The notes under the pieces are model-generated. The model saw nothing but the letters and a program-made list of their open reading frames with translations, searched no databases and was not told the DNA's origin. Shown piece by piece: positions 4,141 through 21,000 of a stretch of 64,000 bases of DNA; position 1 is the stretch's first letter; the number at the start of each line of letters is the position of its first letter. Position numbers and translations under genes: made by a program. This DNA comes from Halanaerobacter jeridensis. GTDB taxonomy: Bacteria > Bacillota > Halanaerobiia > Halobacteroidales > Halobacteroidaceae. Location: assembly GCF_016908315.1 (NCBI RefSeq), contig NZ_JAFBDQ010000005.1, forward strand, positions 1 to 64,000, read 5' to 3'.

Positions 4141-4320
4141 TTTATGTCACACCTCACTATTTATAAATAAACAATCAATCAAGCGATCAATTAATTTTTT
4201 TAGTTTTTCAATACCGACAATTCAATAGTTCATAGAGCTGGAAAAAAATACAATGTCACACTTTCCTTTTCAAACTAAAAAATTGTCACTAAAATATGTA
4301 ACTAAGATTTAGCATTTCGC

Positions 4321-4449
4321 ATAACGTCCCTGGGCTTCGCGACGTCTAGGCACTGCTCCTATACTTTTGCCTATGCTCCTAAATTTCATAAGTCAGTGCT
4401 GCAACCCTGCCATATCCTCTGTGCCTAGATGTCGCTAAGCCCATGTTAT
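4321..4449. repeat. attC-like structured repeat, copy 3
   Basis: ATAACGTCCCTGGGCTTCGCGACGTCTAGG...CCTAGATGTCGCTAAGCCCATGTTAT. Confidence 0.65.
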
Positions 4450-4489
4450 CTGACGTAGCCATTGTCGAATAAAAACTACTGTACTTACA

Positions 4490-6280
4490 TCAAAAATTTT
4501 GGTTATAATTAAGATTAGGTAAGGCAATTAAACAACTTGCTTTTTTATGATATCCATAGCGATTAAGCCCCATATTAGCAAATAAAAACACATCCTTCTT
4601 GGCTCTGGTAATCCCAACATAAAAAATGCTAAGCACTTCTTCAAATTCTTCTCTTAAAGAAGACAAAAACTGGAATTTACAACATTTATCAAACTCTTCC
4701 TTCCCTTGTTTAGCACTACACAACTTGCAAAGTCCTTTTGAAGTAGGAAATGAGTATGCTGTAACTCTAGGAATGTATACATAATCCCATTCTAATCCTT
4801 TGGCACCATGTATTGTAGTTATTGTTATCCTTTCATCAATTTCATTCATTAAATGCTTTAAAGATTCATTTTCTAACACAAAAGAAATCTTTTCAAACTT
4901 TTTATTTTTTGATATATTTTCTGCTTTAGTTTTTTGAAACAATTTTTTTAATAACCTTAACAAGGAATTATATATATACATTGTATCATCTTCATATATA
5001 TCTTCAGTAAGCAATTCCTCCATTCTATCAACAACTCTACTTAGTACACGTTTTGCAATAGATTGATTGATACCACTTTCTTCCAAAAACACATCTAAAG
5101 CTTTCTCATGAAAAGCTACATATTCTCTGTCAGTATCATTGAATAATCCATTAAAATAGGAAATAGATTGTTCTTCTAATTTTTCAATTACCTCATTAGT
5201 ACAATAACTAGCTCGACACAAAATAGATACATCATCAGAATCACTAATCTTATCTTTAATATGTTCTACAATAAACTCGGCTTCTTTATGATTGCTCTTA
5301 AAAAATTTAAAATTCATTTCAGCTTCTTTATCAAAAGAATCCATCTCACTATAATTTAAAAAGATACTACGAATATAACTGTCTAATTTTTTCATCTTTT
5401 CATTATCATCAAATCTATGATTTGTTTTGAATCTCATTTCTTCCATATTAAATTCCTCAGCCATATGGTCAAACAAATCAGGAATAGCTCCAATAAAGCC
5501 ATAAATTTTCTGAATTTTATCTCCCATTAAAATAATTTCGTTTTCTCCCATTAATTTTGTAAGCAATCTATATGATAAATAATTAGTATCTTGAAATTCA
5601 TCAACAATAATCATTTTATAATATTGCTGATAAAAATTTCTAATTGATTTCTTATTTAATAAATAATAGGAAAAAAGCAATAATCCATTAAATGTAATAA
5701 CTTCATTAGGGATTAATATTTCGTTTAAAATCTCAAAATAATTGCTTTCTAACTTTTCAACATTATCAATATTTTCTTTTTCAAACCCATTAAAATTTTT
5801 AATACATTTGTCATACTCTGATAAAATGTCCATTTCCGAAGATGATAGATAATCCTTTAGCACTGCTGAATAATCGGATACTATTCTAAAAGAATCCATA
5901 GCCCCCAAATTTTTATTTAATAAATATCCATGTTTTTTTAACAAAATTCTTGCTAAATTATGATAATTTGCTACATCAAGTTTCTTGGATAAATCAACAT
6001 TTTCATCATCTAATAATTCAGGTAATAATTCATTAGTATCTTTTTTAATTTTATTAGCTGCATTTACGCTAAATGTAAGGGCTAATATTTTTTTATGATG
6101 TATTGTCGGATCTGTAACTATTTTGTAAGCAATTTTACTAATCATTGTTTTGGTTTTCCCATATCCAGCTGGAGCAGTTACAATTATTCTTTGTTTTTGA
6201 CTGAAAATAAAATCAAGTTGCTCTTCATCTTTTCCATGAATATCCTCAATTGATTTAGAAATAGCTTTTTTATTCTTCAT
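4490..6280 (-). CDS. gajB: Gabija GajB, UvrD/PcrA/Rep-like SF1 helicase
   Basis: 596 aa. Walker A TAPAGYGKTKT, motif II MIIVDEFQDTN, motif V/VI TTIHGAKGLEWDYVYIP. Overlaps upstream gajA by 11 nt. Confidence 0.75.
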   Translation of the reverse strand: MKNKKAISKSIEDIHGKDEEQLDFIFSQKQRIIVTAPAGYGKTKTMISKIAYKIVTDPTIHHKKILALTFSVNAANKIKKDTNELLPELLDDENVDLSKKLDVANYHNLARILLKKHGYLLNKNLGAMDSFRIVSDYSAVLKDYLSSSEMDILSEYDKCIKNFNGFEKENIDNVEKLESNYFEILNEILIPNEVITFNGLLLFSYYLLNKKSIRNFYQQYYKMIIVDEFQDTNYLSYRLLTKLMGENEIILMGDKIQKIYGFIGAIPDLFDHMAEEFNMEEMRFKTNHRFDDNEKMKKLDSYIRSIFLNYSEMDSFDKEAEMNFKFFKSNHKEAEFIVEHIKDKISDSDDVSILCRASYCTNEVIEKLEEQSISYFNGLFNDTDREYVAFHEKALDVFLEESGINQSIAKRVLSRVVDRMEELLTEDIYEDDTMYIYNSLLRLLKKLFQKTKAENISKNKKFEKISFVLENESLKHLMNEIDERITITTIHGAKGLEWDYVYIPRVTAYSFPTSKGLCKLCSAKQGKEEFDKCCKFQFLSSLREEFEEVLSIFYVGITRAKKDVFLFANMGLNRYGYHKKASCLIALPNLNYNQNF

Positions 6281-7997
6281 TATCTTCTACTCCATTCATT
6301 AATTCTTCTATAATATCTTTAAAAACTTCAGGCACATTAGTAACATATTTTGCTAAAAGAGAACCATTTAAAGCATTTTTTTTATTCCTTAATTGTTTTA
6401 TTTCTTCTTCTTGATAATTTAGCATAATTCTATTTTTAACTTCCTCAGGAACCTCATATTCTTCAGGAGCTTCTATAAAAAGTCTGGGACTAAATTCTTC
6501 CATCTCCTTTTTTAAATAATTTATAAAAGGAGTAATTTTATCTGCTTCCTTTTGATAAAGCAAATAATCATTAAAATCAAAACTATTATATATTTCTGCT
6601 TCAAAATCTATTTCATTTGTGAAAAATATTCCATCTTCATTTTTATATTTTTCTTCTTGATCTTTATCAATTATAGCTATAGCTCTAATATCATATGCAT
6701 CATAAAGTTTCATACATCTAAGAACACTACCAGCCCCATCAAGTTTTATAATTCCAATACTTTCTTCATCAATATCATATCCTATTCTTTCAATAAGTAC
6801 TGGTAAAGCTCCGAATTCTGTATCACCTTCTACAAGAACTACAGCTTTACTAAACATAGCTTCTTTAATATACATAAAACTTCTTATTAAGTGTTTATGA
6901 GTTTTATCATTAAAATCTATATTTCTACCACACTTTACATTAACTTTATCATTAACCTTATATAATCTAGTAATTTGTTTATAGTTATTTAATAATATAT
7001 TAGGAGAATGTGTAACAACAAACACTTGTCCAATCAAACCATCTATTTCAAATAATTCTTCGAGAAGTTTGATAAAGTCTTCATTCTTATTATCAATAAT
7101 TCTTTTTATACCTTTAATTAATGCTCTTTGTCTATATGGATGTTGGTGTATTTCAGGTTCATCTAAAGCAATTACAATTGGTAAATATCTATTTCCCTCA
7201 TCATCATTAATTAAAATATTATTAAATTTTTCTTCTTTCTTATTAGTTTTTAATTTTATTAACAAATCTAAAATATATAAAAATATATTAAATGAATATT
7301 GTAAGCCATCACCAAGTTCATTTAAACTTTTACCTGTATTGTCTCCTACCTCTAAAATTCGACTAACAATATTCTGCTCATCATCATCCACAAATGCTTC
7401 AATTACTTCTCCTTTTAACCCATTTATTTTATATATTTTTTTATTTAAATCATCAACAATTTCATTAACATCACTAATATTAATTAAATCTAAATTTTCT
7501 ATATCTCTTTCCTCCAAAATGTTTTCAACTAAGTAATTTAAAACTTTTCCAGTTCCAGTGTTTTTTGAAAAATCTATTTCTTTGCTAGGATTCCTTAATG
7601 ACGAATAATAAATAAAATTGATTTTTTTAATAGTTATTGGATTTATATATGTATCTGCCGGAGATGCATGTTTATATTCAATTCGACTATAAATATCTTC
7701 TTGAGTTGCTATAATAGTTAAACTATATTCATCATCAATATCAAAATTATTTTCAAAAAAACCCAATTCATCTTTATTGTAACTTATAGTGAATTTAACA
7801 GATATCTCCTTCTTTGTATCATCAAAATGTTCTTCATAGAATTTACCCTTACGTAATAAACAATTAAGCAACTCCATTACATTAGTTTTACCAACATTAT
7901 TTTCTCCAACTAAAAAATTAATTTCCTCATCAAATTTAAAATTTAGTCCGCTTAAATTCTTGAAATTTTTTACTTCTTTTATTTCACTTACAAACAT
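6270..7997 (-). CDS. gajA: Gabija GajA, OLD-family ATPase with C-terminal Toprim nuclease
   Basis: 575 aa. ABC-type Walker A LVGENNVGKTNVMELL, D-loop/Walker B VIALDEPEIHQHP, and Toprim AVVLVEGDTEFGALPVL. Class-2 OLD gene immediately upstream of a UvrD-like helicase equals Gabija architecture. Confidence 0.8.
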   Translation of the reverse strand: MFVSEIKEVKNFKNLSGLNFKFDEEINFLVGENNVGKTNVMELLNCLLRKGKFYEEHFDDTKKEISVKFTISYNKDELGFFENNFDIDDEYSLTIIATQEDIYSRIEYKHASPADTYINPITIKKINFIYYSSLRNPSKEIDFSKNTGTGKVLNYLVENILEERDIENLDLINISDVNEIVDDLNKKIYKINGLKGEVIEAFVDDDEQNIVSRILEVGDNTGKSLNELGDGLQYSFNIFLYILDLLIKLKTNKKEEKFNNILINDDEGNRYLPIVIALDEPEIHQHPYRQRALIKGIKRIIDNKNEDFIKLLEELFEIDGLIGQVFVVTHSPNILLNNYKQITRLYKVNDKVNVKCGRNIDFNDKTHKHLIRSFMYIKEAMFSKAVVLVEGDTEFGALPVLIERIGYDIDEESIGIIKLDGAGSVLRCMKLYDAYDIRAIAIIDKDQEEKYKNEDGIFFTNEIDFEAEIYNSFDFNDYLLYQKEADKITPFINYLKKEMEEFSPRLFIEAPEEYEVPEEVKNRIMLNYQEEEIKQLRNKKNALNGSLLAKYVTNVPEVFKDIIEELMNGVEDNEE

Positions 7998-8132
7998 TTT
8001 TTTTGCCCCCGTTTCAATTTAAGTAATTAATCTTCTAATTTAAATAAAATTAGTTCATCGATTAAAATCAAGAAAAATTATATTTGATCTTAATCTCTTT
8101 GGATAACCTCTTTTTCAAAATGGCTATGTCAG

Positions 8133-8259
8133 ATAACGTCCCTGGGGTTCGCGACGTCTCGGGACTGCTCCTCTATTCTGCTCATCATCCTAAATTTCAT
8201 AAGTCAGTGCTACAACCCTGCCCTATCCTCTTACCTAGATGTCGCTAAGCTCATGTTAT
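8133..8259. repeat. attC-like structured repeat, copy 4
   Basis: ATAACGTCCCTGGGGTTCGCGACGTCT...AGATGTCGCTAAGCTCATGTTAT. Confidence 0.65.
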
Positions 8260-8425
8260 GTGATGTAGTTAGCAAAAGATATTTTCTATATTCTCCAAAA
8301 CCTATGCAAACACTTCTAAACTATGCTAAACCTATTCTACTCACCTTTGCTAATGAGACTTTTCTTTCACAATCCTTCCCAAACAGCTCTAATTAGAGTT
8401 CTCTTACAACTATAATTCTATAACT

Positions 8426-8671: not shown

Positions 8672-8753
8672 CTACTCTATCTCTTGACCGGTTATAGAAT
8701 TCTGCAGCATTTTCTATTCTAATACAAACAAACCCATTTGCTAACTATGTCAC

Positions 8754-8882
8754 ATAACGTCCCTGGGCTTCGCGACGTCTCGGGACTGCTCCTATACTTT
8801 TGCTTATCCTCATAAATTTCATAAGTCAGTGCTGCAACCCTGCCCTATCCTCTATACCTAGATGTCGCTAAGCCCATGTTAT
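8754..8882. repeat. attC-like structured repeat, copy 5
   Basis: ATAACGTCCCTGGGCTTCGCGACGTCT...AGATGTCGCTAAGCCCATGTTAT. Nearly identical to copy 3. Confidence 0.65.
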
Positions 8883-8923
8883 CCGACGCCCGGCTTCTAT
8901 AAAAAATATATCCCTCTTTTAAC

Positions 8924-9781
8924 CTAGTAACTTTTTAATATATCTAAATATTCACTTTTTGTTTCATTATCATATAAACCCTTCGCTTCATTTAGAGTTT
9001 CTATAGCCCAGTCTACATATTTTTGATTTACTTTTTTACTATTTTCTATTTTTTCTATAAATCTTTCTATTTTATTTCTCAATTTATTGTTTACTGATTT
9101 TAATTTTTCTTCCAATTGTTCATTCTCTTCTGCTAGTTCTTCATTCTCTTCTGCTAGTTCTTCATTCTCTTGCTCTAATTGTTCTTCAATTTCTTTTAAC
9201 ATTTCTAATCTTTGTTTTAACCGTTGTGTTTCCTTCTTTTCTTGTTGTGTTTCCTTCTTTTCTTGTTGTGTTTCCTTCTTTTCTTGTTGTGTTTCCTTCT
9301 TTTCTTGTTGTAATTTCTTATCAGACTGCTCAACTGCCTCATCTAATGCACTTAACTCTTCATCACTCCATTCAGTACTTTCCTTACTACTCTCACCTTC
9401 ATTTAATATTTCTTTTATTTTGCTTTTAACCCAACTAGGAGCTTCTATAAAATCTTTTCTCAATCTTTTATTCTCTGATTTCAACAACTCTTTATAAGCT
9501 AAATCTAAATTAGAAAGATTATCTTTAGTCAATATATCTATTTCAATTAAATTTTCTGCGAATTCTCCTGGTTTCATAAATTTATCTTCTAATTTGCTTA
9601 TTTCTTCTAATTCGTCATATAATTTAGTTTTAGCCTTATTAGTACTTAATTCAGCTTGTTTTAGTTTCTCTTCTGTTAAACCATAATCCTCATTTAACTT
9701 AGTAGTTACATCATCTGCTAAAACATTCACTGTCAAAACCAATAGCAATACAATCAATAATAAAACACTTAACTTCTTCAT
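8924..9781 (-). CDS. secreted coiled-coil protein with tandem heptad-like repeats
   Basis: Signal peptide MKKLSVLLLIVLLLVLTVNVLA. QQEKKET x4 encoded by 21-bp tandem repeats at 9226-9310, and ENEELAEENEELAEENEQLEE. Ends with TAG. Confidence 0.6.
   Translation of the reverse strand: MKKLSVLLLIVLLLVLTVNVLADDVTTKLNEDYGLTEEKLKQAELSTNKAKTKLYDELEEISKLEDKFMKPGEFAENLIEIDILTKDNLSNLDLAYKELLKSENKRLRKDFIEAPSWVKSKIKEILNEGESSKESTEWSDEELSALDEAVEQSDKKLQQEKKETQQEKKETQQEKKETQQEKKETQRLKQRLEMLKEIEEQLEQENEELAEENEELAEENEQLEEKLKSVNNKLRNKIERFIEKIENSKKVNQKYVDWAIETLNEAKGLYDNETKSEYLDILKSY
9226..9310. repeat. 21-bp tandem repeat (x4) inside the coiled-coil protein gene
   Basis: tgtgtttccttcttttcttgt repeated four times in a row. 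Confidence 0.85.
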
Positions 9782-9864
9782 AATCTGCCTCCCCTAAATT
9801 ATGGTTTTTAATGTTTTTAATATGTATTTCTTTCAATAAAAATAGCAGCTAAGCCGGGTTTCGG

Positions 9865-9990
9865 ATAACGTCCCTAGGGTTCGCGACGTCTAGCTAAACC
9901 CTCCTATAACTTGTCCATCCTCTAAAACTCAATATTCAATTCCTAACCTTCCCTAACCTCTCAACCTAGATGTCGCTAACCCTATGTTAG
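9865..9990. repeat. attC-like structured repeat, copy 6 (different central region)
   Basis: ATAACGTCCCTAGGGTTCGCGACGTCTAG...CTAGATGTCGCTAACCCTATGTTAG. Stem TAGGGTT/AACCCTA. Confidence 0.65.
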
Positions 9991-10014
9991 ACGATGTTTG
10001 CTTGATAAAAATCA

Positions 10015-11046
10015 TTACCTTCTCTCTATTTCTTCAATTATTAATTTTGGGAATTTATATTCAATTACAGCAATAGCTTCTTTTAAAAGCGGATAAGAAA
10101 AATCTCCTTTTGAACTAGTAATCATTGACATCCAATGAGTTGGATAATATCGAACTAACATACCAATCGCATATGAAATAATGTAAATAGTTAATAAAGA
10201 AGAAAAATTTAAATTATCAGCTAAAGGGGCAACAGCAAATATATTATTTTTTCTATCATTTTTTACAAACGGAACTCTATTATAAAACTCTTCATTAGAA
10301 GAATGAATTATTCTAAAAGATATATTTTCTAAATTACCTGCAAAATTATGTTTTTCCTTCTTTCTCGTTTTAATGTCTTTTGGTAAACCAAAGTCATCTC
10401 TAACTAATTCCTTATTAGGTAACCCAATACTAGTTTCTAACACTGCAATATCTGTTTGTTCAGATAAACAAAAAACAATTGCATTATAACATTTAGAATA
10501 ATCATCAAAAGTATTCTCATATATATTTTGTAATTCCGGAATCCTCGCTAATATTTCTTTAATAGTAATTAAATTATTACTATCTTCTTTACCCCCATAT
10601 TGTTTTATTTTAGTTCGATTTGGATATGGAGCTATATATATTGAACTTCTCTCAATATTTTCTGTAACCTCCCATAACTTAGAAAATGTGCCAGAAGTAA
10701 TCTCAACATTCAAATTAGGTACTTCTTCTATTCCATCTGAAAGTTTTTGGGTCCAATTTTTCACTCTTAATCCATGAGATGGTTTAAGGCTAGTTACTCT
10801 TGCAAAAGGATCTAAAAATAAAATTAATCCACGACAAAATGCAACTACTCCGTAATAAAACAATAGAGGAGATACAACATTATCAGCCTGTTTTGCACTG
10901 GAAAAATATTCTCTTCCTTGAGTAATATGAGAAACTATTTCCTCTGCTTTTCCAGCCGAAAGTTCTCTATCATGCTTCTCTTCATAAAATTTTGAAACTA
11001 AATCTTTGCTTTCATACAAAGATATCTTAGACCAAACATTTTTCAT
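10015..11046 (-). CDS. YaaC-like family protein
   Basis: 343 aa. Pattern W..IS.YES.DLV.KF...H...QGREYF..A.....V.PLLFYYG.V and C-terminal PLLKEAI.VIE.KFPKLII match my recollection of B. subtilis YaaC-family proteins. Confidence 0.5.
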   Translation of the reverse strand: MKNVWSKISLYESKDLVSKFYEEKHDRELSAGKAEEIVSHITQGREYFSSAKQADNVVSPLLFYYGVVAFCRGLILFLDPFARVTSLKPSHGLRVKNWTQKLSDGIEEVPNLNVEITSGTFSKLWEVTENIERSSIYIAPYPNRTKIKQYGGKEDSNNLITIKEILARIPELQNIYENTFDDYSKCYNAIVFCLSEQTDIAVLETSIGLPNKELVRDDFGLPKDIKTRKKEKHNFAGNLENISFRIIHSSNEEFYNRVPFVKNDRKNNIFAVAPLADNLNFSSLLTIYIISYAIGMLVRYYPTHWMSMITSSKGDFSYPLLKEAIAVIEYKFPKLIIEEIERR

Positions 11047-11069
11047 TATTTACCTCCCTTTTTCCCTTG

Positions 11070-11528
11070 TCACAAATTTACTTTTTCTAACTGTGTAGGC
11101 CAAGCTCCTTGACCATTTCCTCCTTTAAAATAAACTCTATAATTTTTTCCTATAGAAGAAACAACATGTTTAGTAATATACTTCTTTTCTTCACCATCAA
11201 TTTCAACTTTACTTTTCTTTTTAACTTTGTCTCCAGGCTTTAAATTTAATTCTTCAATTGCTTGCTTATTATTTTCTTTTAATTTATCCTCAATTTTTGC
11301 TGAGGCAACTCTCAACGAATTGTTTTTAAGATCTAAACCCAATTCTTCTCCAAATTCAATTTGTTTTTCAGTAGACTCATTAAATTCCATATTAGGATCA
11401 ATTGCTGGTTCAACTGCATCATAAATCCTTGCACTTGCTACATTACGAGTATCATTAGAAATATCAACTTCTAATTTAATTGCTATATTCTTTTGAAATG
11501 GTGTTGGTTTTTTATGAACATCATTCAC
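11070..11528 (-). CDS. hypothetical protein, co-cassette partner of the YaaC-like gene
   Basis: 152 aa with internal duplication (RNVASARIYDAVE / LRVASAKIEDKLKE). Same cassette as 10015-11046. Confidence 0.45.
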   Translation of the reverse strand: MNDVHKKPTPFQKNIAIKLEVDISNDTRNVASARIYDAVEPAIDPNMEFNESTEKQIEFGEELGLDLKNNSLRVASAKIEDKLKENNKQAIEELNLKPGDKVKKKSKVEIDGEEKKYITKHVVSSIGKNYRVYFKGGNGQGAWPTQLEKVNL

Positions 11529-11577
11529 AAATAAATTTCCTCCTTTAAAAAATATAATATAACAAAAGCAAATGTCG

Positions 11578-11705
11578 TCTAACGTCCCTGGGGTTCGCGA
11601 CGTCTAGCTCAACCCTCTTATAACTTGTCCTTCCTATAAAACTTTCATATGTAATCTCTACCTTCACCCATCCTCCTAGCCTAGATGTCGCTAACCCCAT
11701 GTTAT
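11578..11705. repeat. attC-like structured repeat, copy 7 (same subfamily as copy 6)
   Basis: CTAACGTCCCTGGGGTTCGCGACGTCTAG...CTAGATGTCGCTAACCCCATGTTAT. Stem TGGGGTT/AACCCCA. Confidence 0.65.
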
Positions 11706-11955
11706 GTGATGCTTCTGATCGGTTAATAAAAAATAATCCCCAATAAAATTAAAACCCTCATTAAAATTTAGCATAATAATAAATACTCATATCAAACAAC
11801 TATAATTCGAATTATTTTATACTAATATTATATTCAACCTTACTTTTACTCCTCAATTTGCAACTCAACTCCTGGTATATAAACATTAATCCTTTCTATT
11901 TTAAATCTAATTCTATTTTCTAATTCTTTTTTCACAATATCTTGAATTGTTTGCC

Positions 11956-12648
11956 CTACTTTATAAACTTTTTTCTAGAATCAACAATTATATTTAAGTT
12001 AACAGTAATTCTTTCACCTTGTCTTTCAATCTCAACACCTTTAGATAAATCTTTTAAACCTAATATATCCTTAAGCGCATTCAAAAAACTACCTCCATTA
12101 GTATCTACTACCCCATCTATCTCTCTAACAACTATTCCCACTAACTCTTCTATCTTGTTATATTTTTCATCTTCAATACTAATTGAATTCAATTCAATAT
12201 TATTTTCATTTCCTAATTTATATTTAGGAAATAATCTATTACTTGGATCATCTGGTTCAGTATAATCAAATTTTTTTATATTAACTTTAACCTTGTTAAC
12301 TTCAATTCCTGTTTTATGTTTCAATCTATATTTTACAGTATCTCTTATTTCTTGGGCTACTATATTACTTTGCATTTCATCTTTTATTATTGCATTAATT
12401 TCAATAATAAATCCGTCATCAATTATTCTATATTCTATTCCCTTAGATAAATTATTTATTCCTAATAATACACGAATATCATCAAAAAAACTTCCCTGCG
12501 TATCAATTACTCCATCTATTTCTCTAACAATAACCCCAATTAAAATTTTTATTACTTCTTTAGAAATCCTAATCTTTCCTTTGTTATTTTTTTGTTCAAT
12601 ATCAATATCCTTAGATTTTTTCATAATTGTTTTGCTCTCCTTTTGCAA
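11956..12648 (-). CDS. Asp23/Gls24-family protein with two Asp23 domains; 3' end apparently frameshifted
   Basis: Two copies of VIKILIGVIVREIDGV.DT...LSKGIE. The conserved C-terminal continuation VYKVGQTIQDIVKKELENRIRFKIERINVYIPGVELQIEE* is in another frame at 11846-11958, after an A6 run. Confidence 0.65.
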   Translation of the reverse strand: MQKESKTIMKKSKDIDIEQKNNKGKIRISKEVIKILIGVIVREIDGVIDTQGSFFDDIRVLLGINNLSKGIEYRIIDDGFIIEINAIIKDEMQSNIVAQEIRDTVKYRLKHKTGIEVNKVKVNIKKFDYTEPDDPSNRLFPKYKLGNENNIELNSISIEDEKYNKIEELVGIVVREIDGVVDTNGGSFLNALKDILGLKDLSKGVEIERQGERITVNLNIIVDSRKKFIK

Positions 12649-12691
12649 TATAGATAAAAAGTTTTATAAGAAGTTTCACATAACTTATTTT

Positions 12692-12753
12692 TTAACGACA
12701 CAAAAATCATAATTTATAGTTGTTCCTTATATTTACGATGATTGTGTCGTTAA
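12692..12753 (-). promoter_or_regulatory. perfect hairpin immediately 3' of the recombinase gene (terminator and/or attI-like site)
   Basis: TTAACGACACAAAAATCAT...ATGATTGTGTCGTTAA. It contains GTCG/CGAC cores that resemble the conserved GCGACGTC/GATGTCGC boxes of the attC-like repeats. Confidence 0.35.
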
Positions 12754-12760
12754 AATCAGA

Positions 12761-13801
12761 TTAGTTGATTAAATTATCTAACGGACTTTCTATGTTTGCA
12801 ATATCTCTTTTGCTGACATGAGTATATATTTCAGTAGTAGTAGAACTCTTATGTCCTAATAATTTTTGGATGTATCGTAAATCAGTTCCTTGCTCTAATA
12901 AATGTGTTGCAAAAGAATGTCTTAAAGTATGTACAGAAACATCTTTAGTAATATTAGCTTTTCTACAGGCTTTTTTGAATATTCTTTGTACTGATCTTGT
13001 AGTTAAGTGTTCTCCTTCTTTGCCTCCAGGAAACAACCTCTTTTCGGGTTGATATAATTGATGATACATTTTTATCTGTTTCAGACAAGATTCTGATAAG
13101 ATCGTATAGCGATCTTTTCTCCCCTTCCCTTGATTAATTTTAATTAGCATTCTATCACTATTAATATCATCCATTTTTAGTTTAACAACTTCACTAACCC
13201 TTAATCCAGCAGAATAAACTACATACAAAATTGTTTTATGTTTGGGGTTATCTAGACTATCTAAAATCTTCGCTACTTCTTTTTTACTTAATACTTCCGG
13301 TAACTTTTTTTCTTTTTGTGGTCGTGATAAAACAACTGAAATATCTTTATTATCCAATACTTCCCGGGCCAAGAACTTAATAGCACTAATCCCCTGGTTA
13401 ACAAATGAATGTGATAAATCTTGGTCTAATAAATCCAACAAATAATCCTTAATCTCAGCATCAGTCACTCGTGATAACTTCTTATTAATAAATCGTGCAA
13501 ACTGCCTAATATGACTCATATAAACTTTTTCCGTCTTTTCACTATAACCTTCTAAATTTAACTGATTTTTTAGTTCATTAATTACTAGTTCATTTTCTAA
13601 AGCACTGGAAATTATAATTCTTTCATTAACAAATTTCTCTTTTAACTGTTCTAAAATATCATAATCATAAGGTACTAACCATGCTCTAGCTTTAGGGGCC
13701 CATTCCCGCTTATTAATTTCTTTAATTTTTTTAATTTTTCTTTCCGAATAATCAAATTTAACAGCTAGTTGTCCTTCTAACTTTTCAATTCTTAATGTCA
13801 T
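12761..13801 (-). CDS. tyrosine-type site-specific recombinase (XerD-like core, about 100-aa N-terminal extension); putative cassette-array integrase
   Basis: 346 aa. Box II HTLRHSFATHLLEQGTDLRYIQKLLGHKSSTTTEIYTHV, R at LRVSE, catalytic Y in EIYTHV, C-terminal SPLDNL. Only about 58 aa between KDR and HTLRHS, so no IntI-type additional domain is evident. Confidence 0.85.
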   Translation of the reverse strand: MTLRIEKLEGQLAVKFDYSERKIKKIKEINKREWAPKARAWLVPYDYDILEQLKEKFVNERIIISSALENELVINELKNQLNLEGYSEKTEKVYMSHIRQFARFINKKLSRVTDAEIKDYLLDLLDQDLSHSFVNQGISAIKFLAREVLDNKDISVVLSRPQKEKKLPEVLSKKEVAKILDSLDNPKHKTILYVVYSAGLRVSEVVKLKMDDINSDRMLIKINQGKGRKDRYTILSESCLKQIKMYHQLYQPEKRLFPGGKEGEHLTTRSVQRIFKKACRKANITKDVSVHTLRHSFATHLLEQGTDLRYIQKLLGHKSSTTTEIYTHVSKRDIANIESPLDNLIN

Positions 13802-14037
13802 AAATTAGCTCCTCTCTCGCACGCATAAAATTAAATCTAACAAAAAATAGATTTTATAACATTATAACCAAATTTAAGAGCTAATATACATTAAAATATA
13901 TTTGCAACTAGCTTTTCTTATTATATTATTGATTATATACATTTATAGCATATTCTAGTTATACTTTTATTTTTCTCCACTAAAAAATATTTTCCTGCAC
14001 ATTCATCGTTAAAATCAATTTATTCTACTTATTTTTA

Positions 14038-14073
14038 CAAAAAAATAAAAGCTATCAAAATAATTTTGATAGC
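14038..14073 (-). terminator. Rho-independent terminator
   Basis: gctatcaaaa taa ttttgatagc followed by a T-run on the minus strand. Confidence 0.6.
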
Positions 14074-14154
14074 AAATTAAAGTTTATATTCTTTTTTATC
14101 TATAAACTAGGGCCAACAACAAATAAGTTACTCAATCAAAATTAATATTTATTA

Positions 14155-14820
14155 TTAAACATCATTCTTCTGAACTAATTGATTTAAACCTTCAGCTACA
14201 TCTGCTAATTGCTGAGAAGAAGCTGCAATGTCATCAGACATATGAGTTATTTCTTGTGATACATCCAAAACTTCATCACTATTTTCAGCTAAAGTTTGGG
14301 TGGAATTGTTTATAGCTTCTATTGCTGCATTTAAAGCTAATAAATTAGTCTGTTCTGCTATATTATCAATCAATTTAATTATTTTCCCAACTTCTTCAGA
14401 ATTATGATCAAGCTGATTAATCGTTTTTACTGTTTGACTTACAGAATCAGTAATGTCTTCCATACTGTCAATTGCTTTTTGAACTTTTTTGCTACCCAAC
14501 TGAACTCTCTTATTAGTTTTTTGAGCAAATTCTGCTACTTCGTTAATACTATTAGATATACCGTGTATTTTAAGTGCCATTTTTTCAATCAAAGAAGAAC
14601 TAGTTTCAATTGAGGCATTCCCTTCTTCAGCAGCAGCTGATAATTGTTGACTAGTAGCAGTAACTTCTCCAACTTTTTCTTTTATATTATTAATAATGAT
14701 ATTTAAATTCTGACTTAAATCTAAAGCTTCAGCCTGTTTTTCTTCTGCCAAATTTATTAAATGAATTGATTTATTAATTAACAAAATAGCAACAATTCCA
14801 GTGAAAATAAAAATAACCAT
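14155..14820 (-). pseudogene. methyl-accepting chemotaxis protein remnant (TM plus partial signalling domain)
   Basis: 221 aa: one TM helix then [16 protein letters not shown]...[11 protein letters not shown]. Lacks the HAMP/sensor region and the ARAGE.GRGFAVVA segment. Compare intact MCP at 37424-39019. Confidence 0.5.
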
Positions 14821-14991
14821 AATTAAAATCTAAGTAGTAGGGCCAAACATAGCTAATATAGTATCTGTAATTATATAATATTCAACTAATAATTAGTGGA
14901 ATTAAGGTAATTGAGTTTAAAAATAGATATTGTTTTGTTACTAAGGATACTTGATAAGTTTTTAATTTATTCCCTTTAACTACTAAAAATA

Positions 14992-15780
14992 TTATTCTAT
15001 CATATCTTCTAATGATATTTGCTTATTATGATCTCTTTGTTTACCTATACTAACTTCTTGATATTGAATTGCTTCTTCTGGACACCACTGTATACAGGCA
15101 AAACACAATTCACAATCGTCTCCCCAGACTGGACTATCATCAACTAAACTAATATTACCTCTAGGACAAAGTTCTACGCACTTACCGCATAAATTACAAT
15201 CTTCAGTTGACCAAAAATCAGCTGCGGCTTCTTTGAATTGCTTAATTGCACCTTTATGGATCATTCCCCCCAAAAAATTAGCTAATTTTGAGCTAGTTTC
15301 TAATTTGTGCTGCTGCTTATTCTCAACTACCTCAATAATCTCTGATAATCGTTCTGCAAATGGAAGAGGCGGTTCTCCTGCAATATTCCTCATTATTTTC
15401 ATAAAAATATTTTCCTCTAAAAAAGTATAACTAGCCTCTCTTACTGCAAATCCCGCTTTTAAATCTCCTCCACTTTTATTCAACAACTCTTTTAGCTGAA
15501 TCAAAGTATTTCCTGGTGTTCCTCCACAAGTAGCTACAGCAAAAGTATACTCTTCCCCACTTAGTTTAATCTGTTTCACAAAATCTGCAACAATCCTCGG
15601 CAGACCCCAAGCATAAACTGGAAAGACAAAACCTATTCTTTCTGCTTCTAAACTATCACAATTATTCATAGCTTCAGAAATAGCTACTAACTCAACATTA
15701 TCAAGTTTCTCTACTATCTGACGAGCAGCAAATAAAGAATTCCCTGTTCCGGAAAAATAAAATATTTTGTTTAGCATCAT
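14992..15780 (-). CDS. flavodoxin-like / 4Fe-4S ferredoxin-domain protein
   Basis: N-terminal flavodoxin-like fold (IFYFSGTGNS). C-terminal CGKCVELCP and CELCFACIQWCP cysteine clusters. Confidence 0.6.
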   Translation of the reverse strand: MMLNKIFYFSGTGNSLFAARQIVEKLDNVELVAISEAMNNCDSLEAERIGFVFPVYAWGLPRIVADFVKQIKLSGEEYTFAVATCGGTPGNTLIQLKELLNKSGGDLKAGFAVREASYTFLEENIFMKIMRNIAGEPPLPFAERLSEIIEVVENKQQHKLETSSKLANFLGGMIHKGAIKQFKEAAADFWSTEDCNLCGKCVELCPRGNISLVDDSPVWGDDCELCFACIQWCPEEAIQYQEVSIGKQRDHNKQISLEDMIE

Positions 15781-15811
15781 TGATCACCTTTATTCAATTA
15801 ATTTTACTACC

Positions 15812-16630
15812 TTATTTACTTTTTTCTCTTCCTTCCTGATCATAAACAATAGCTGTCTTATCAAACTCATACAACAAACCATCACCAGCAAAGGTTCTAT
15901 GTTCTTTTCCACTAATTTCACCAGCTAAAACTCCTTCTATTCCTATTATCAATTCATCAACTATATCTGCTTCTAAAGGGGTCCTTCTGTGCGCTGGTAA
16001 AACCATATCAAATTCATCTATTCTACTTTTTATCTTCTTGAGTCCGGCTAAAAATGTATTTAATGACTTTGAACTTCCTAACTGCAACCAAATGTGCCCC
16101 TCTACTATTGCATCTCCAGTAAATAATGCTTTATCTTCTTTATCAAGCAAACAAATACTACCTGCAGAATGACTAGGCAGGGCAATTACTTCAATATTTT
16201 TATCTCCCAAGTCAAATTGATGACCATCTTTTATGAAAATTAAATTATTATAATCTGCTTCAAGCCATCCCTCTACATCAAATTGTGGGGGATAAGGTCC
16301 CCGTTGTGCTTTCTCTAAAGCCCACTCCCTACTTTCTCGTTCAAAACATCCTTTTAATAATTTTGCATCAGCTTTAGTGATGTGAACATTATCAAATTGA
16401 TAAGCTCCACCTACATGGTCAGGATGACCGTGAGTATTAACTACTACTATTGGCAGTTCTGTCAATTCAGAAATTAATTCTTTTAAATCTCCTATACCCC
16501 AGCCAGTATCAATTAATAAAGCTCGCTTACTACCTCTAACTAAATAAATAGTATTATCACCATTATCATCAATTGCTAAAATATCATCTGTTATTTCTTG
16601 TACTTCAAACCACTGCTCTTTCGTCTTCAT
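15812..16630 (-). CDS. MBL-fold metallo-hydrolase
   Basis: VNTHGHPDHVGG metal-binding motif. Confidence 0.75.
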   Translation of the reverse strand: MKTKEQWFEVQEITDDILAIDDNGDNTIYLVRGSKRALLIDTGWGIGDLKELISELTELPIVVVNTHGHPDHVGGAYQFDNVHITKADAKLLKGCFERESREWALEKAQRGPYPPQFDVEGWLEADYNNLIFIKDGHQFDLGDKNIEVIALPSHSAGSICLLDKEDKALFTGDAIVEGHIWLQLGSSKSLNTFLAGLKKIKSRIDEFDMVLPAHRRTPLEADIVDELIIGIEGVLAGEISGKEHRTFAGDGLLYEFDKTAIVYDQEGREKSK

Positions 16631-16689
16631 TGAAAAAAACCTCCACTAATTTAATTACTTTTAATCCAAGCAACAATATATTCCACTGA

Positions 16690-16960
16690 ATTAATTTATT
16701 CTCCCTTACTAATATTTTATTCTTTGTTCTGGGCCAACAACTTACGAAATCCTCTTTCATCAAAATACGTTACTGCTTCAAAATTAGCCGGATGATTATA
16801 GGCACCTTCCTCAAAATATTCTGTCCTTCCCCTCTTGCTCCACTAAATATTGATTAACTGACCTTGATACAGTAGTCTTTCCTGCACTAGGCAGCCCTTC
16901 TACTAAAATTAAATTTTCTTCCCCTAACACTTCACCTCTCAGTTTTATCACATAAAACTC
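16690..16960 (-). pseudogene. frameshifted remnant of a small P-loop NTPase/kinase
   Basis: rc translation VIKLRGEVLGEENLILVEGLPSAGKTTVSRSVNQYLVEQEGKDRIF*, then in another frame EEGAYNHPANFEAVTYFDERGFRKLLAQNKE*. Confidence 0.3.
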
Positions 16961-17029
16961 TAATTACTATAATATTTCTCTGTAAAACTTAATTCTCATT
17001 CAATTGATTCAACTAAAACTGCACACCAG

Positions 17030-17260
17030 TTAATCAAATTCCGCAAAGTTCTGCGCAAAAACAAAATTTAGTATCGGCTCCCCTTCTTGAAACTCCAACA
17101 TTTCTAATTTTAATTCTTTTCCAGCTAGTTCTTGTCTCGTCTTAATTATTTCTTTTTCTGGGGGAGTATTACTCATTCCTAACAACAAAATAGCTATTAT
17201 TAACATCAATCCTAACAACAATATCTTATTTTTGTTTAACATTTTATTCCCTCCAGTCAT
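17030..17260 (-). CDS. small membrane protein
   Basis: 76 aa with one hydrophobic helix. Overlaps the TetR gene end by 4 nt. Confidence 0.35.
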   Translation of the reverse strand: MTGGNKMLNKNKILLLGLMLIIAILLLGMSNTPPEKEIIKTRQELAGKELKLEMLEFQEGEPILNFVFAQNFAEFD

Positions 17261-17893
17261 TTTCTAATAGACCGCTTAGCAAAATCGAACATAGCTGTTA
17301 TGATCTCTTCTACTTCTCGCTGATGATATCCTTCTAAATAAGCTTTCTTTTTAGCCACCAAACTATTAACTCCCATAATATTGGCCCACAGAATTAATGC
17401 TGTATCAGTAACATCTATATCTTCTCTAATACTTCCATCTGCTATTCCTTCTTTTACCGCAGTAGTTAAAAACTCAAAAGCCTGTTCTCCCTTTTGATAA
17501 TACTCCTGCATCAACTGATCATCACTACTAAAATCTTCTTTTTGGGTTTCATAATTAGCGATTGCCTTAAAGTAATCGGGATATTCTTGATACAACTCTA
17601 AAAAACTACGGCCAATTGTCTCAATCTTGACCCAACCATTTTGTTCAGACATAGCTTCTAAATTCTGTTCTATCAACTTAATAAATTGTTCAAAAGCCCG
17701 AATAATCACTGCTAAATACAACTGCTGTTTACTATTGAAATAAACATAAATAGTTCGTTTACTAAATTATGCTTCTTGGGCTACTTCACTCATGGTAGTA
17801 TCTTCATAACCGTAGGCAAAAAATAATTTTTCTGCCGCATCAACAATCTCTGTTCTATTTATTTCTTTTGCTTTTTCTTTTCTTGATTCAACG
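17257..17893 (-). pseudogene. TetR/AcrR-family regulator with an in-frame TAA
   Basis: HTH part MGVESRKEKAKEINRTEIVDAAEKLFFAYGYEDTTMSEVAQEA, then TAA (+ strand tta at about 17767-17769), then FSKRTIYVYFNSKQQLY... joining the 154-aa ORF in the same frame. Confidence 0.5.
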
Positions 17894-18034
17894 CCCATAA
17901 TCTATCTCCTTTCATGAAAGTGTAATTAAATAAACTAATAGTTTACTTAATTACATTTTACTCTTTTTTTAATTATTATCAAGAAAAAAAGAACATATCT
18001 AATCTCAGACATGTTCTTAATTACATATTAATTA

Positions 18035-21000
18035 TTAATTTTTTAAACTACTACCAATCAACTTTAAATTTTCTCCAATGTTATTTAATTCATTGACCAC
18101 TTGGATTACTTTTTGCCCGTCTTGATTGGACTTTTTCTTACGGTAGATTTCTTTTATTTCCTGCCATCTTTCTTCTTTCTCTGCTGTCATCCGTCCAGTA
18201 ATTTCATGAAACTTTAACAAACTAGCTTCAGCATGAGTTGCTAAGGTCTGAGCATCATTAATATAACTATTAACTATCAACTTATCCAATTCATCTTCAT
18301 TCATAATCGGGACTACTTTTTCTACAATTTTATTCATATTCCGGTAAGACCCCTGCAGTTTAAATGGTGGTTCTGTTCTATAATCATCATTTTGCGAAGC
18401 AGATTTGATATATTCCATATTAACTCTTAGCACTTCATCTCTAATCTGGAGACAACTTTCTAATACCTTTTGGGCTTCTTCTAACTCTTCTTCAGTATAA
18501 CTACCCTGCAAATTCATTTCTTCTTGCGTCTTAGTTGTAATATCCTCTAATAGTTGATAGATATCTGTTTGATTTTTCATATAAATATTATTTAAATATT
18601 GATTAGACGTGATAGCATTTTCAATATAACTAAGTTTAAAAGCCGATTCATTTTCTCTTAACATATCACCTAAATTATAGACATCAGCCCGATTGGCTAA
18701 CATATCAGGAATCTTAAATTTATCTCCACTTTCAGTATAAGGGTTACCGCCCATTACTACAGCTACCTTTTTACCTCTAAATTGATAAGTTTTACTTTGG
18801 CCTTGATAGACACCATCTATCTTTCTCTGACCGTCGCATAAAGAGATAAACTTCTGTAAAAACTCAGGGTTAGAATGCTGGATATCATCTAAATAAATCA
18901 TCACATTATTACCAATCTCCAGGGCCAAATTCAACTTCGCGAGTTCCTCCCTCGCACTAGCATTTTCAGCTTCCGCCGGATCAAGTGAGGTTACCCCATG
19001 CCCAATTGTCGGACAATTGACTTTAACCAGCATCATACTTAAGCGGTTAGCCACATATTCCACCAAAGTCGTCTTCCCATAACCCGGCGGAGAAATCATC
19101 AACAGCATTCCCATGTTATCAGTCCGCTTATCTTTACCAGCCGTTCCAATCTGTTTAGCTAGATTATCACCAATTAACGGCAGATAAACTTTATCGATTA
19201 ATTTATTGCGGACAAAAGAAGTCAGCACACTCGGCTTTAAATCCTCAAAATTAAACCTACTTTTAAGTTCCGCAATTTTAGCAAACTTTAACTGCTGAAA
19301 CTCCTGATACTGGGGCACAATATTGTTTTTAAAATTATCTAACTTAGCTAAAAAATCCGTTAAGCTAATTTGATACTGCCCATTATCAAGCTGAGGATGA
19401 GTACCTACTAAATTATCAATCTCAATTTGCGATTCTTCATTAATTATACGCCGCTGCTCATAATCATCAACCATTAAAATAGATAATACTTCATCAACAT
19501 AATGATTAAAACTCACTTCTTCTTCATGTAAATAAGACTGCAGCCATTCACTAATTAAAATATACTTTCCTTCCAAATCATCTGCTAATTTTTCCACTGA
19601 ACTATCAAAATCACTTTTAGCACTCTTAGCAATTAGAAAATCAGCAAACTGCTGGTGGATTTCTGCTGCTTCTTTACTAATTGCAAAAGCCTCATTTTGA
19701 CTTATTTCTTTGGCTAAATATTCTGCTGTTTTGTGATACTGACTACATTTAATCCATTCATTATCTGCTGTAAATGATTTGATTTCAGCCGCTAAGATAG
19801 GGATAAAACTAGCCACTAACTCCCGCTGCGAATACTTAGCTATGACATTAACTGTTTTTAATCTCCGCTGCAACTTTTCTTTTTTCTCTGATGCTAAACC
19901 AAACTCCCAAAACAAGTTTGCTACTGCTCTAACTTGAGGACTGTAAGCTGCTAATTCTAATTCACGGTATTTCTCTACTACTGCCTTTAGTATTTTTCGT
20001 CCATCATGATCGTGAACTCCAGTGGTATAATATTCATTAGAATGCTGCTGCATATAATCTTTAATGATTTTAGTTAAAGCCTGCTCATCTTTTTGATAGA
20101 GGTTATCTAATTGATTTTGCTCCTCATATTTTTTAAAGATATTATAGGCTAAAAACTCAGCTCGGTAAACTTCTTTATTTTCAGAAATTACTTCCTGCTC
20201 CCACACCTGCTCGTAAGCACTAAATTCTTCTTGTTCAATCGCTTCCCAAAAGTCAGTACCGGAAATGTGAAAATAAAAGCCGTCATCTTTACGCATTAAA
20301 CTTAACTCAGCTTCTTGATTATTAACTAAGAAATGATGATTGCCGAGCTTAATTGTATTCTCATCTAAAAATAATTCCTGCTTATCTTTTAACTGCTTGA
20401 TACTAGTTTCCCTTAACGATTTAAGTTTGTTTTCAATATCATCTGCTTTGGTGCTCGCTCCAAGGTCAATTAATTCTGCAATAATATCTCTTATCTTATC
20501 AACCATTGGACTAGTAGATAGTAGTTCATTAATCTCTGCTACTTCATCACAAGAATGAACCCGATTCTTTAAACTTTTAAAAATTCTATCCGCCGCATTA
20601 CCTAAAGAATCAATTTTTCGATTCTTCTGTTCCATTAGCTGCTGCTTTTTAGCTTCAAAAGTAGATACTATCTCTTCTCTTTTTTCAGTCAGTAGCACTA
20701 TAAACTCATCAAATTCAGAAAATTTACTCTCTAACTCATCAATTTGGATAATAATTTTAGACATATATGATTCAGTTTTCTCAACAGTAGTTGATAGTTC
20801 TAAATAATTAGCTACAGAATGAGTTAAAAGATTTAACTTAGAATAAAACTCAGCTTCTTTCTCCTGCGCACTTAAATTATCTATTTTGTTTTTGAGCTGT
20901 GACTTGTGCTGATTTAAATTAGAGAATAACGCCGAAATTTTATCAATAATCACTGAAGTTTTAGTCGCATCTTTGATCTTTAGATTATTAACTATATTAA

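Follow-up and report, generated by a model that had tools for sequence, protein, structure and literature searches.

A probable attI-equivalent platform site beside an Xer/IntI-like recombinase gene in Halanaerobacter jeridensis

Integrons are defined by the IntI-specific domain, and attI1 has a "simple site" layout of an L box, a spacer and an R box, with accessory sites that are direct repeats. Chromosomal integrons with an "inverted integrase" are known, for example in Treponema spp. (PMC4889954), and attC sites, such as the Vibrio cholerae repeats, are recombined by IntI as folded single strands (PMC2727003, PMC3458562). A folded single strand also takes part when the attP(+) hairpin of CTX-phi recombines with the double-stranded site dif, where one pair of strands is exchanged by XerCD, recombinases of the Xer type that carry no IntI insert (PMC3442271), and the chemistry proposed below would therefore need no IntI domain. 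Canonical integrons are reported to be nearly lacking in Firmicutes: the 2016 survey had none (PMC4889954), and that made with IntegronFinder 2.0 had one complete integron (PMC9024848). Our search of the literature on integrons in Halanaerobiales and Bacillota, on the box sequences and on HARP domains together with recombinases found no description of the system presented here, with incomplete coverage, so that an earlier description is possible.

The window (the 64,000 nucleotides of Halanaerobacter jeridensis contig NZ_JAFBDQ010000005.1 that were analyzed) is low in G+C and has nearly all of its genes on the minus strand, including a recombinase gene and at least seven gene cassettes in the same orientation (the co-oriented or "inverted" arrangement). 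A hairpin lies between the recombinase stop codon and the first cassette, which is where attI would be in an inverted integron, as the sequence-only reading had recognized. Together with the adjacent TCACATAAC core, this hairpin is probably the attI-equivalent platform site of a chromosomal, co-oriented integron-like system.

The recombinase and its cassette array

The recombinase is an Xer/IntI-like tyrosine recombinase of 346 aa (12761..13801, minus strand) with an extra N-terminal domain of 75 aa, and it is 100% identical to an H. jeridensis protein named "site-specific tyrosine recombinase/integron integrase" by NCBI. Its best solved relatives, with equal scores, are VchIntIA (2a3v) and archaeal XerA (4a8e). 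The match to VchIntIA falls into two parts, between which 19 residues of the query (245-263) replace 61 residues of the chain (179-239), the stretch in which the IntI-specific domain is located. The NCBIfam XerA model recognizes the recombinase just over its cut-off (227.8 vs 220), and the integron-integrase models score below theirs (TIGR02249, 218 against 265 and in two stretches; NF011946, 144.7 against 435). The additional domain specific to IntI, which has about 35–60 aa and is located close to the C-terminal portion of the catalytic domain, is absent from the recombinase by both the structural and the NCBIfam comparison, and on these grounds the enzyme is not a canonical IntI. Across the alignment of the recombinase family, the catalytic R, K, H, R, H and Y do not vary.

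The N-terminal domain (residues 1–75; 13576-13801, minus strand) is also found in the recombinases of the related loci (L001-L102), where F16, Y18, W34, W41 and P44 are invariant. Its AlphaFold model is confident (pLDDT 87.5), and its best match among solved structures is to archaeal XPB helicase, in the N-terminal, DNA-damage-recognition domain of that protein (E = 0.05, probability 0.99, TM 0.53), with the HARP domain of SMARCAL1 further down the list. Pfam HARP gave sub-threshold matches in 6 of 22 members of the recombinase family (best E = 4.7e-4). The resemblance of the modelled domain to XPB/HARP-type domains is weak; if it is real, the domain might stand in for the IntI insert in the reading of folded sites.

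The first cassette (11715..12683, minus strand) carries an Asp23-family gene (ORF 11956-12648, likely ATG at 12625) and is closed by the first attC-like site (11569..11714, minus strand; 135.8 bits with the covariance model), in which the R'' box, TCACATAAC, is the pairing partner of the core (12676-12684). Six further attC-like sites on the minus strand (9855-9999, 8744-8891, 8123-8268, 4311-4458, 2517-2662, and 1496-1641) bound the later cassettes. The seven sites are ~146 nt long and have the minus-strand order TCnnnTAAC-A-TGGGC-TTAGCGACATC ... GACGTCGCGAA-GCCCA-GGGAC-GTTAnnnGA. At six of the six internal junctions, the variable 3' (R') triplet of one site is complementary to the 5' (R'') triplet of the next, which is an integron cassette signature, since the first bases of a cassette derive from its own recombination site; the start of a cassette is thus complementary to the R'' of its own attC-like site throughout the interior of the array, as in integrons, and the same holds at the platform junction in nine of the ten loci.

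The fold of these sites was assessed in an alignment of 31 attC-like sites from the window and the related loci, using a structure specified by hand and tested against controls. In this fold, 92.6% of cells are paired, against at most 48% when it is slid by 1–3 columns, and 71 cells have changed on both sides, compared with 28 ± 4.6 in shuffles (none of 500 reached 71). The 5-bp spacer stem alternates among TGGGC/GCCCA, GCAGC/GCTGC, TAGGG/CCCTA, and TGCGA/TCGCA, and two L-box mismatches and an unpaired GGGAC are conserved, with no variation at the mismatches or at four of the five GGGAC columns. The pairing and covariation identify the 146-nt repeats as folded, attC-like sites, and the cassettes are therefore bounded, as in integrons, by imperfect palindromes that have AAC...GTT cores and fold as single strands. 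The structure given by RNAalifold for the same alignment was set aside, as it chose a local GACGTC/GACGTT stem over the long-range fold. The L boxes TTAGCGACATC and GACGTCGCGAA are nearly identical over all sampled genera, the attC-like sites being unusually uniform, and the conserved unpaired GGGAC is on the 3' arm of the gene-sense strand.

The cassette at 4459-8122 (minus strand) contains a complete two-gene Gabija system (ORFs 6270-7997 and 4490-6280; GajA E = 6e-158, GajB E = 9.7e-179), and cassettes of the relatives carry Shedu-type SduA_C, type I restriction-modification, Fic, PDDEXK, and STAND-NTPase genes. The arrays resemble defence-gene stores, and with its Gabija, Shedu-type, restriction-modification, Fic and STAND-NTPase cassettes the platform also matters as such a store in extremophiles. 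Another cassette ORF of 285 aa (8924-9781, minus strand), which had no Pfam match, contains two runs of 21-nt tandem repeats (9107-9327; three and five copies), some copies being 100% identical and the encoded protein repeat having seven residues.

A recombinase gene with a co-oriented array of the same attC-like sites is also present in metagenome contigs (L001, L004, and L005; recombinase 87% identical), in Natroniella (L093), Orenia metallireducens (L094), O. marismortui (L100), Halonatronum (L095), Sporohalobacter (L102), and Selenihalanaerobacter (L098), and in the metagenome-assembled genome of an uncultured Bacillota (L008); L001-L007 all come from one metagenome study and are not fully independent. 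Several genera of Halanaerobiales thus have the complete cassette logic in the absence of an IntI domain: the sites fold, the ends of the cassettes match, there is a platform site, and the cassettes turn over. The window and L001 share synteny upstream of the recombinase gene, where both encode an MBL-fold protein and a DUF3686 protein of 1624 aa, and they differ on the downstream side, by which the platform looks sedentary and chromosomal. The attC-like site had no match among PLSDB plasmids, and plasmid-borne recombinase homologues are at most 47% identical. In the loci of distant homologues from other phyla no sites of the attC-like type were found (one 28-bit match in 1.04 Mb), and no obvious arrays were seen downstream of five distant recombinase homologues. 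Homologues with 50–57% identity also exist in other Clostridia (Natranaerovirga, Tindallia, Marinisporobacter, and Clostridium sp. CF012). A scan of the genome collection with the recombinase alignment returned distant homologues only (at most 51% identity), peptide patterns being too general, and a metagenome scan with the attI pattern TTGTGTCGTTWAWAAATAAGTTA gave seven matches to one and the same unrelated sequence, lacking the partner arm. Contig P0006 ends within the recombinase gene and contributes no junction.

Several of the related loci have features of their own. In L090 (metagenome/MAG; recombinase 59% identical), the recombinase gene (10001-11047) lies between inverted attC-like sites (9245-9398, plus; 11048-11195, minus), with an additional site upstream (5397-5546, plus) and mutated outer cores in two of the sites (GATAT, GAATC); recombination between the inverted sites could flip the recombinase gene between the co-oriented and the divergent arrangement. 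The array of L093 (Natroniella sp.) contains, at 12665-20614, four genes for IS91-family Y2 (rolling-circle) transposases (399 aa), each followed by a weaker attC-like variant (51–56 bits) and three of them ~1627 nt apart, and the transposase gene is either a repeated cassette or an element that targets the hairpins. In L001, the closest relative, the first five cassettes past the platform (11125-15447) are about 490–1025 nt each, with three of ~1020 nt, and have no ORF above 61 aa; they may be non-coding, may encode small proteins or may be duplicated. In the window itself, the last recombinase codons and the stop codon (ATCAACTAA-T; 12764-12781, minus strand) are loosely like the R'' consensus ATCAcaTAAC, and the covariance model aligns these codons to the R'' box, a likeness that is not kept in L008. 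This end of the recombinase gene may preserve part of an ancestral attC-like site that overlapped it, or the likeness may be due to chance.

The hairpin and the insertion junction

The hairpin occupies 12690..12755 and is kept in L001-L009. An inverted-repeat search gives arms of 23 nt each (12690-12712 and 12733-12755; 87% complementary), within which a perfect stem of 14 bp is formed by TTTTAACGACACAA (12690-12703) and TTGTGTCGTTAAAA (12742-12755), consisting of 12 pairs plus flanking TT/AA, with 4 of the 14 pairs G-C and an interior of 38 nt; above it are a 3-nt AAA bulge and four further pairs (TCAT/ATGA). The letters quoted in the sequence-only reading for a perfect 16-bp stem are present (TTAACGACACAAAAATCAT at 12692-12710, 27 nt, and ATGATTGTGTCGTTAA at 12738-12753), but the quoted arms are 19 and 16 nt long and the perfect part ends after 14 bp at the bulge. 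The foot of the stem is 5 nt from the recombinase stop codon (12761-12763). As DNA, the hairpin has folding energies of −14.9 and −17.1 kcal/mol (z = −4.6 and −5.1; none of 200 shuffles equally stable), and as RNA of the recombinase strand −26.8 kcal/mol (z = −6.0). At five places in the window, a perfect inverted repeat with arms of 14 bp or more encloses a loop no longer than 60 nt, compared with 0.14 expected per 64-kb window from first-order Markov simulations. A promoter within the hairpin loop was also considered, and the consensus scan gave it no support.

Four distinct versions of the H. jeridensis-type hairpin exist, and among them two pairs have changed on both sides and are still complementary (C-G to T-A in L008; T-A to A-T in L006). 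In the pairing test on these versions, 93% of cells are paired, against at most 54% in slid controls, and the observed score was reached by 18 of 500 shuffles. This suggests that selection acts on the complementarity of the arms, with modest support for pairing as such because the distinct sequences number only four. These sequences fit a folded structure or a symmetric double-stranded binding site alike, as a palindromic protein site could give symmetric changes.

The arms contain two L-type boxes with the sequence TTAACGACA, one proximal to the crossover (12692..12700, plus; TGTCGTTAA on the recombinase strand), assigned by motif and spacing, and one distal and inverted (12745..12753, minus), located 5–13 nt past the recombinase stop codon. 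TTAACGACA matches the attC-like box TTAGCGACA in both arms, and the motif TTARCGACA occurs 10 times in the window, against 0.64 by chance, in the L'' boxes of the seven attC-like sites, in each hairpin arm and at one further position, which bears out the earlier remark that the hairpin cores echo the boxes of the attC-like repeats. A 7-nt spacer (12685..12691; TTATTTT on the plus strand) separates the proximal box from the core, and it is 6–7 nt in most lineages examined, in which the distance from the TCG of the box to the GTTA core is 10–11 nt. Across lineages, the box ahead of GTTA appears as TGTCGTTAA, CTTCGTTAA, CTTCGTAAA, CGTCGTAAA, or GTGTCATGAA. The distance to the inverted partner box varies; it is 38 nt in the window, and in Orenia and Halonatronum there is no gap, the boxes forming loop-less palindromes (e.g., AACGACATATGTCGTT) with a second palindrome upstream. 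The arrangement GTGTCGTTAA + AAAATAA + GTTATGTGAAA fits an Xer/dif geometry with putative recombinase-binding arms of ~11 bp and a centre of 6–8 bp, but the two arms are only weakly related to each other.

The covariance model of the attC-like sites aligns the hairpin end to end and in the same orientation, with L'' as the distal arm, L' as the proximal arm and R' as the core. The match is weak (E = 0.73 for the hairpin over all DNA searched), and the platform site scores 15.0–15.2 bits in the window and 22 in L008, compared with typically 85–145 for true sites and 51–56 for the weakest variants. In L090, the place directly past the stop codon is taken by a full attC-like site of 104 bits that is inverted and has a degenerate outer R box. 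By this alignment and the full site in L090, the platform site appears to derive from an attC-like site by trimming, being AT-rich and retaining the L boxes and a single R box.

The R-type box with the crossover core (12676..12684, minus strand) reads GTTATGTGA on the minus strand, which is TCACATAAC on the plus strand. The ATAAC noted in the sequence-only reading is present at 12680-12684, one base off the 12679-12683 given there, and it is 5 nt outside the stem rather than inside the hairpin. The sequence after the stop codon was aligned for four lineages (the window, L001-5, L006-7, and L008-9), in which the hairpin is kept at recombinase identities to the window of 87, 85, and 73%, and similarity ends directly after GTTAnnnGA(A/C)A, where unrelated sequence begins. 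The lower-stem arms are identical to the window at 24–27 of 28 positions, compared with 61–79% identity for the third positions of codons in the recombinase gene, and identity between the arms is 58–82%, approximately the neutral rate. Over the first 18–80 nt past the core it drops to 28–44%, the background level, in most pairs, the 18-nt comparisons with L009 ranging from 17 to 56%.

The sequence past the core differs among the window, L001, L006, and L008, giving at least four distinct continuations, and L008 and L009, which encode an identical recombinase protein, nonetheless differ past the core over the 18 nt available in L009. Three metagenome contigs break in or just ahead of the core, as is expected where a population is heterogeneous. 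The core triplet is the reverse complement of the first attC-like R'' triplet in 9 of 10 loci from seven genera, with six different triplets (TGT, TAT, AGT, GGT, GCC, and TAC); for example, GTTATGTGA at the platform of the window (12684 to 12676) corresponds to TCACATAAC in the first site (11569-11714), and in L090 the rule is off by one base. By its complementarity with the beginning of the first attC-like site, the core is recognized as a true insertion junction. As similarity ends at the GTTA core and its triplet matches the R'' of the first site, the exchange point would be G|TTA, between 12684 and 12683, where the platform ends and cassette 1 starts. The comparison of relatives for cassette change at the hairpin, as had been suggested, thus showed different first cassettes behind a conserved core, and the proposal of an attI-like primary site is supported, with the hairpin kept, the similarity ending at the core, the cassettes variable, the triplet matching in nine of ten loci and the L-box motif shared.

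Proposed mechanism and rival readings

In the mechanism that we infer from these motifs and junctions, the recombinase would recognize two kinds of box, an R box with invariant TAAC/GTTA and an L box, for which the cassette sites have TTAGCGACA and the platform has TTAACGACA. At the platform, the proximal arm would serve as the L box, followed by the 7-nt spacer and the R box bearing G|TTA (11 + 7 + 11), a layout like that of an Xer core site or of the "simple site" of an integron attI. A circular cassette would offer its attC-like site as a folded single strand, and a single strand exchange at G|TTA would insert the cassette directly after the platform, as in integrons. Replication might then resolve the exchange product, by analogy with integrons and with CTX-phi/XerCD (PMC3458562, PMC3442271). 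The distal arm, as an inverted second L box, could bind more recombinase subunits or could let the L box form a duplex hairpin in single-stranded DNA. The strand cleaved would likely be the plus strand of the window (5'-R box-spacer-L box-3'), judging from the general geometry of tyrosine recombinases. The analogy with integrons may fail in mechanistic detail, since the recombinase has no IntI-specific domain.

The stem begins 5 nt past the recombinase stop codon, and such a position together with the very stable RNA fold would also suit an RNA element (a terminator, an attenuator or a 3'-end stabilizer of the recombinase mRNA) that parts recombinase from cassette expression, control of read-through into the cassettes being plausible in a co-oriented platform. 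However, UUUU-stem-AAAAAAUAAG is the reverse of a terminator and the other strand is alike, the stem being bounded as TTTT-stem-AAAA on both strands; no U-tract follows the stem in either direction, so the hairpin is no classical terminator and the simple terminator held in reserve by the sequence-only reading, for which a U-run was to be looked for, is not supported. In place of a G+C-rich stem and a short loop, there are 4 G-C pairs in 14 and an interior of 38 nt, a terminator scan was empty at the hairpin, Rfam had no match in the region 11400-14200, and the palindromes of Orenia and Halonatronum likewise lack T-runs. An RNA element would, moreover, leave the shared attC motif, the fixed distance to the core and the junction evidence unexplained, and we consider it unlikely, although the hairpin may act as a weak attenuator or mRNA 3' stabilizer. 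The loop-less palindromes of Orenia and Halonatronum, such as AACGACATATGTCGTT, are typical of dimeric repressor sites, and a weak sigma-70-like match lies just upstream of the hairpin (12801-12773, minus strand), both of which would fit a palindromic operator, bound by another DNA-binding protein or by the recombinase in autoregulation, that controls a cassette promoter and takes no part in strand exchange. Promoter matches show no enrichment, however (22 vs 18.2 ± 4.2 in shuffled sequence), the motif is that of the attC L box, which is found at recombination sites and not at promoters, and no regulator gene is conserved beside the platform across the loci, which makes an operator very improbable.

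The end-to-end alignment of the hairpin by the covariance model, with L'', L' and R' recognizable, and the full attC-like site at the same position in L090 can also be read as signs of a decayed attC-like site, a functionless relic of the innermost cassette, with insertion taking place deeper in the array by attC x attC exchange. Against a relic, the arms are more conserved than the silent sites of the neighboring gene and show compensatory changes, the box-to-core distance is constant in most lineages examined although the sequences differ, and the cassette content changes exactly at the platform site. Since descent from an attC-like site is compatible with a present platform function, the kinship does not distinguish the two, and we regard a functionless relic as improbable.

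The platform reading can be extended to a gene-capture system of Halanaerobiales in which the folded sites are read by the N-terminal domain of an Xer-like enzyme, an XPB/HARP-like domain that would bind DNA by its structure and take the place of the lacking IntI insert, and in which attI is derived from an attC-like site and acts in folded form at least in part. We offer this extension tentatively and with some doubt; if true, single-strand cassette recombination would have been solved independently, or in an ancestral form, in a phylum almost without canonical integrons. The platform site is compact (~80 bp) and has clear L and R boxes, which make the system directly testable, and it opens the questions of whether an Xer-like enzyme can run an integron, which strand is used and whether attI evolved from attC.

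Comparison with integrons, attC sites and CTX-phi

The 146-nt sites of the window share with attC sites the R''-L''...L'-R' symmetry, the AAC/GTT cores, the covarying stems and the conserved unpaired bases, and by our own reading of the alignment their unpaired or extrahelical bases are on the arm opposite to that of canonical attC bottom strands. The hairpin shares with them the L box and the R' core, but it has no R'' partner other than the loose match on the stop codon, no covarying GC spacer stem and no GGGAC bulge, and it is thus not itself an attC site. With Rho-independent terminators it has in common a stable stem-loop right after the stop codon and differs from them in being AT-rich, with a 38-nt interior and no U-tract. 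The CTX-phi case differs in that a phage integrates at the chromosome dimer-resolution site by means of two different Xer proteins and there is no cassette array with a dedicated platform.

The closest comparison is with the attI of the "inverted integrase" group (PMC4889954). In both, the site adjoins the recombinase gene on the cassette side and ends in a GTT-containing core that takes the cassettes, is lineage-specific on the platform side with variable cassettes on the other, has an L-spacer-R layout and belongs to a recombinase co-oriented with its cassettes. The canonical integron layout, with an integrase divergent from the cassettes and Pc in or near intI/attI, is not found here, where the recombinase and its cassettes share one strand, like those of the inverted group (PMC4889954). 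The attI sites described so far are neither hairpins nor attC-like, whereas the platform site has an inverted second L box and a weak attC-like alignment; its accessory boxes are inverted where those of attI1 are direct repeats, and its enzyme is not an IntI. The platform would therefore act like an attI of the inverted group, but because its recombinase has no IntI domain the system is outside the integron family as defined and is a variant of the integron idea.
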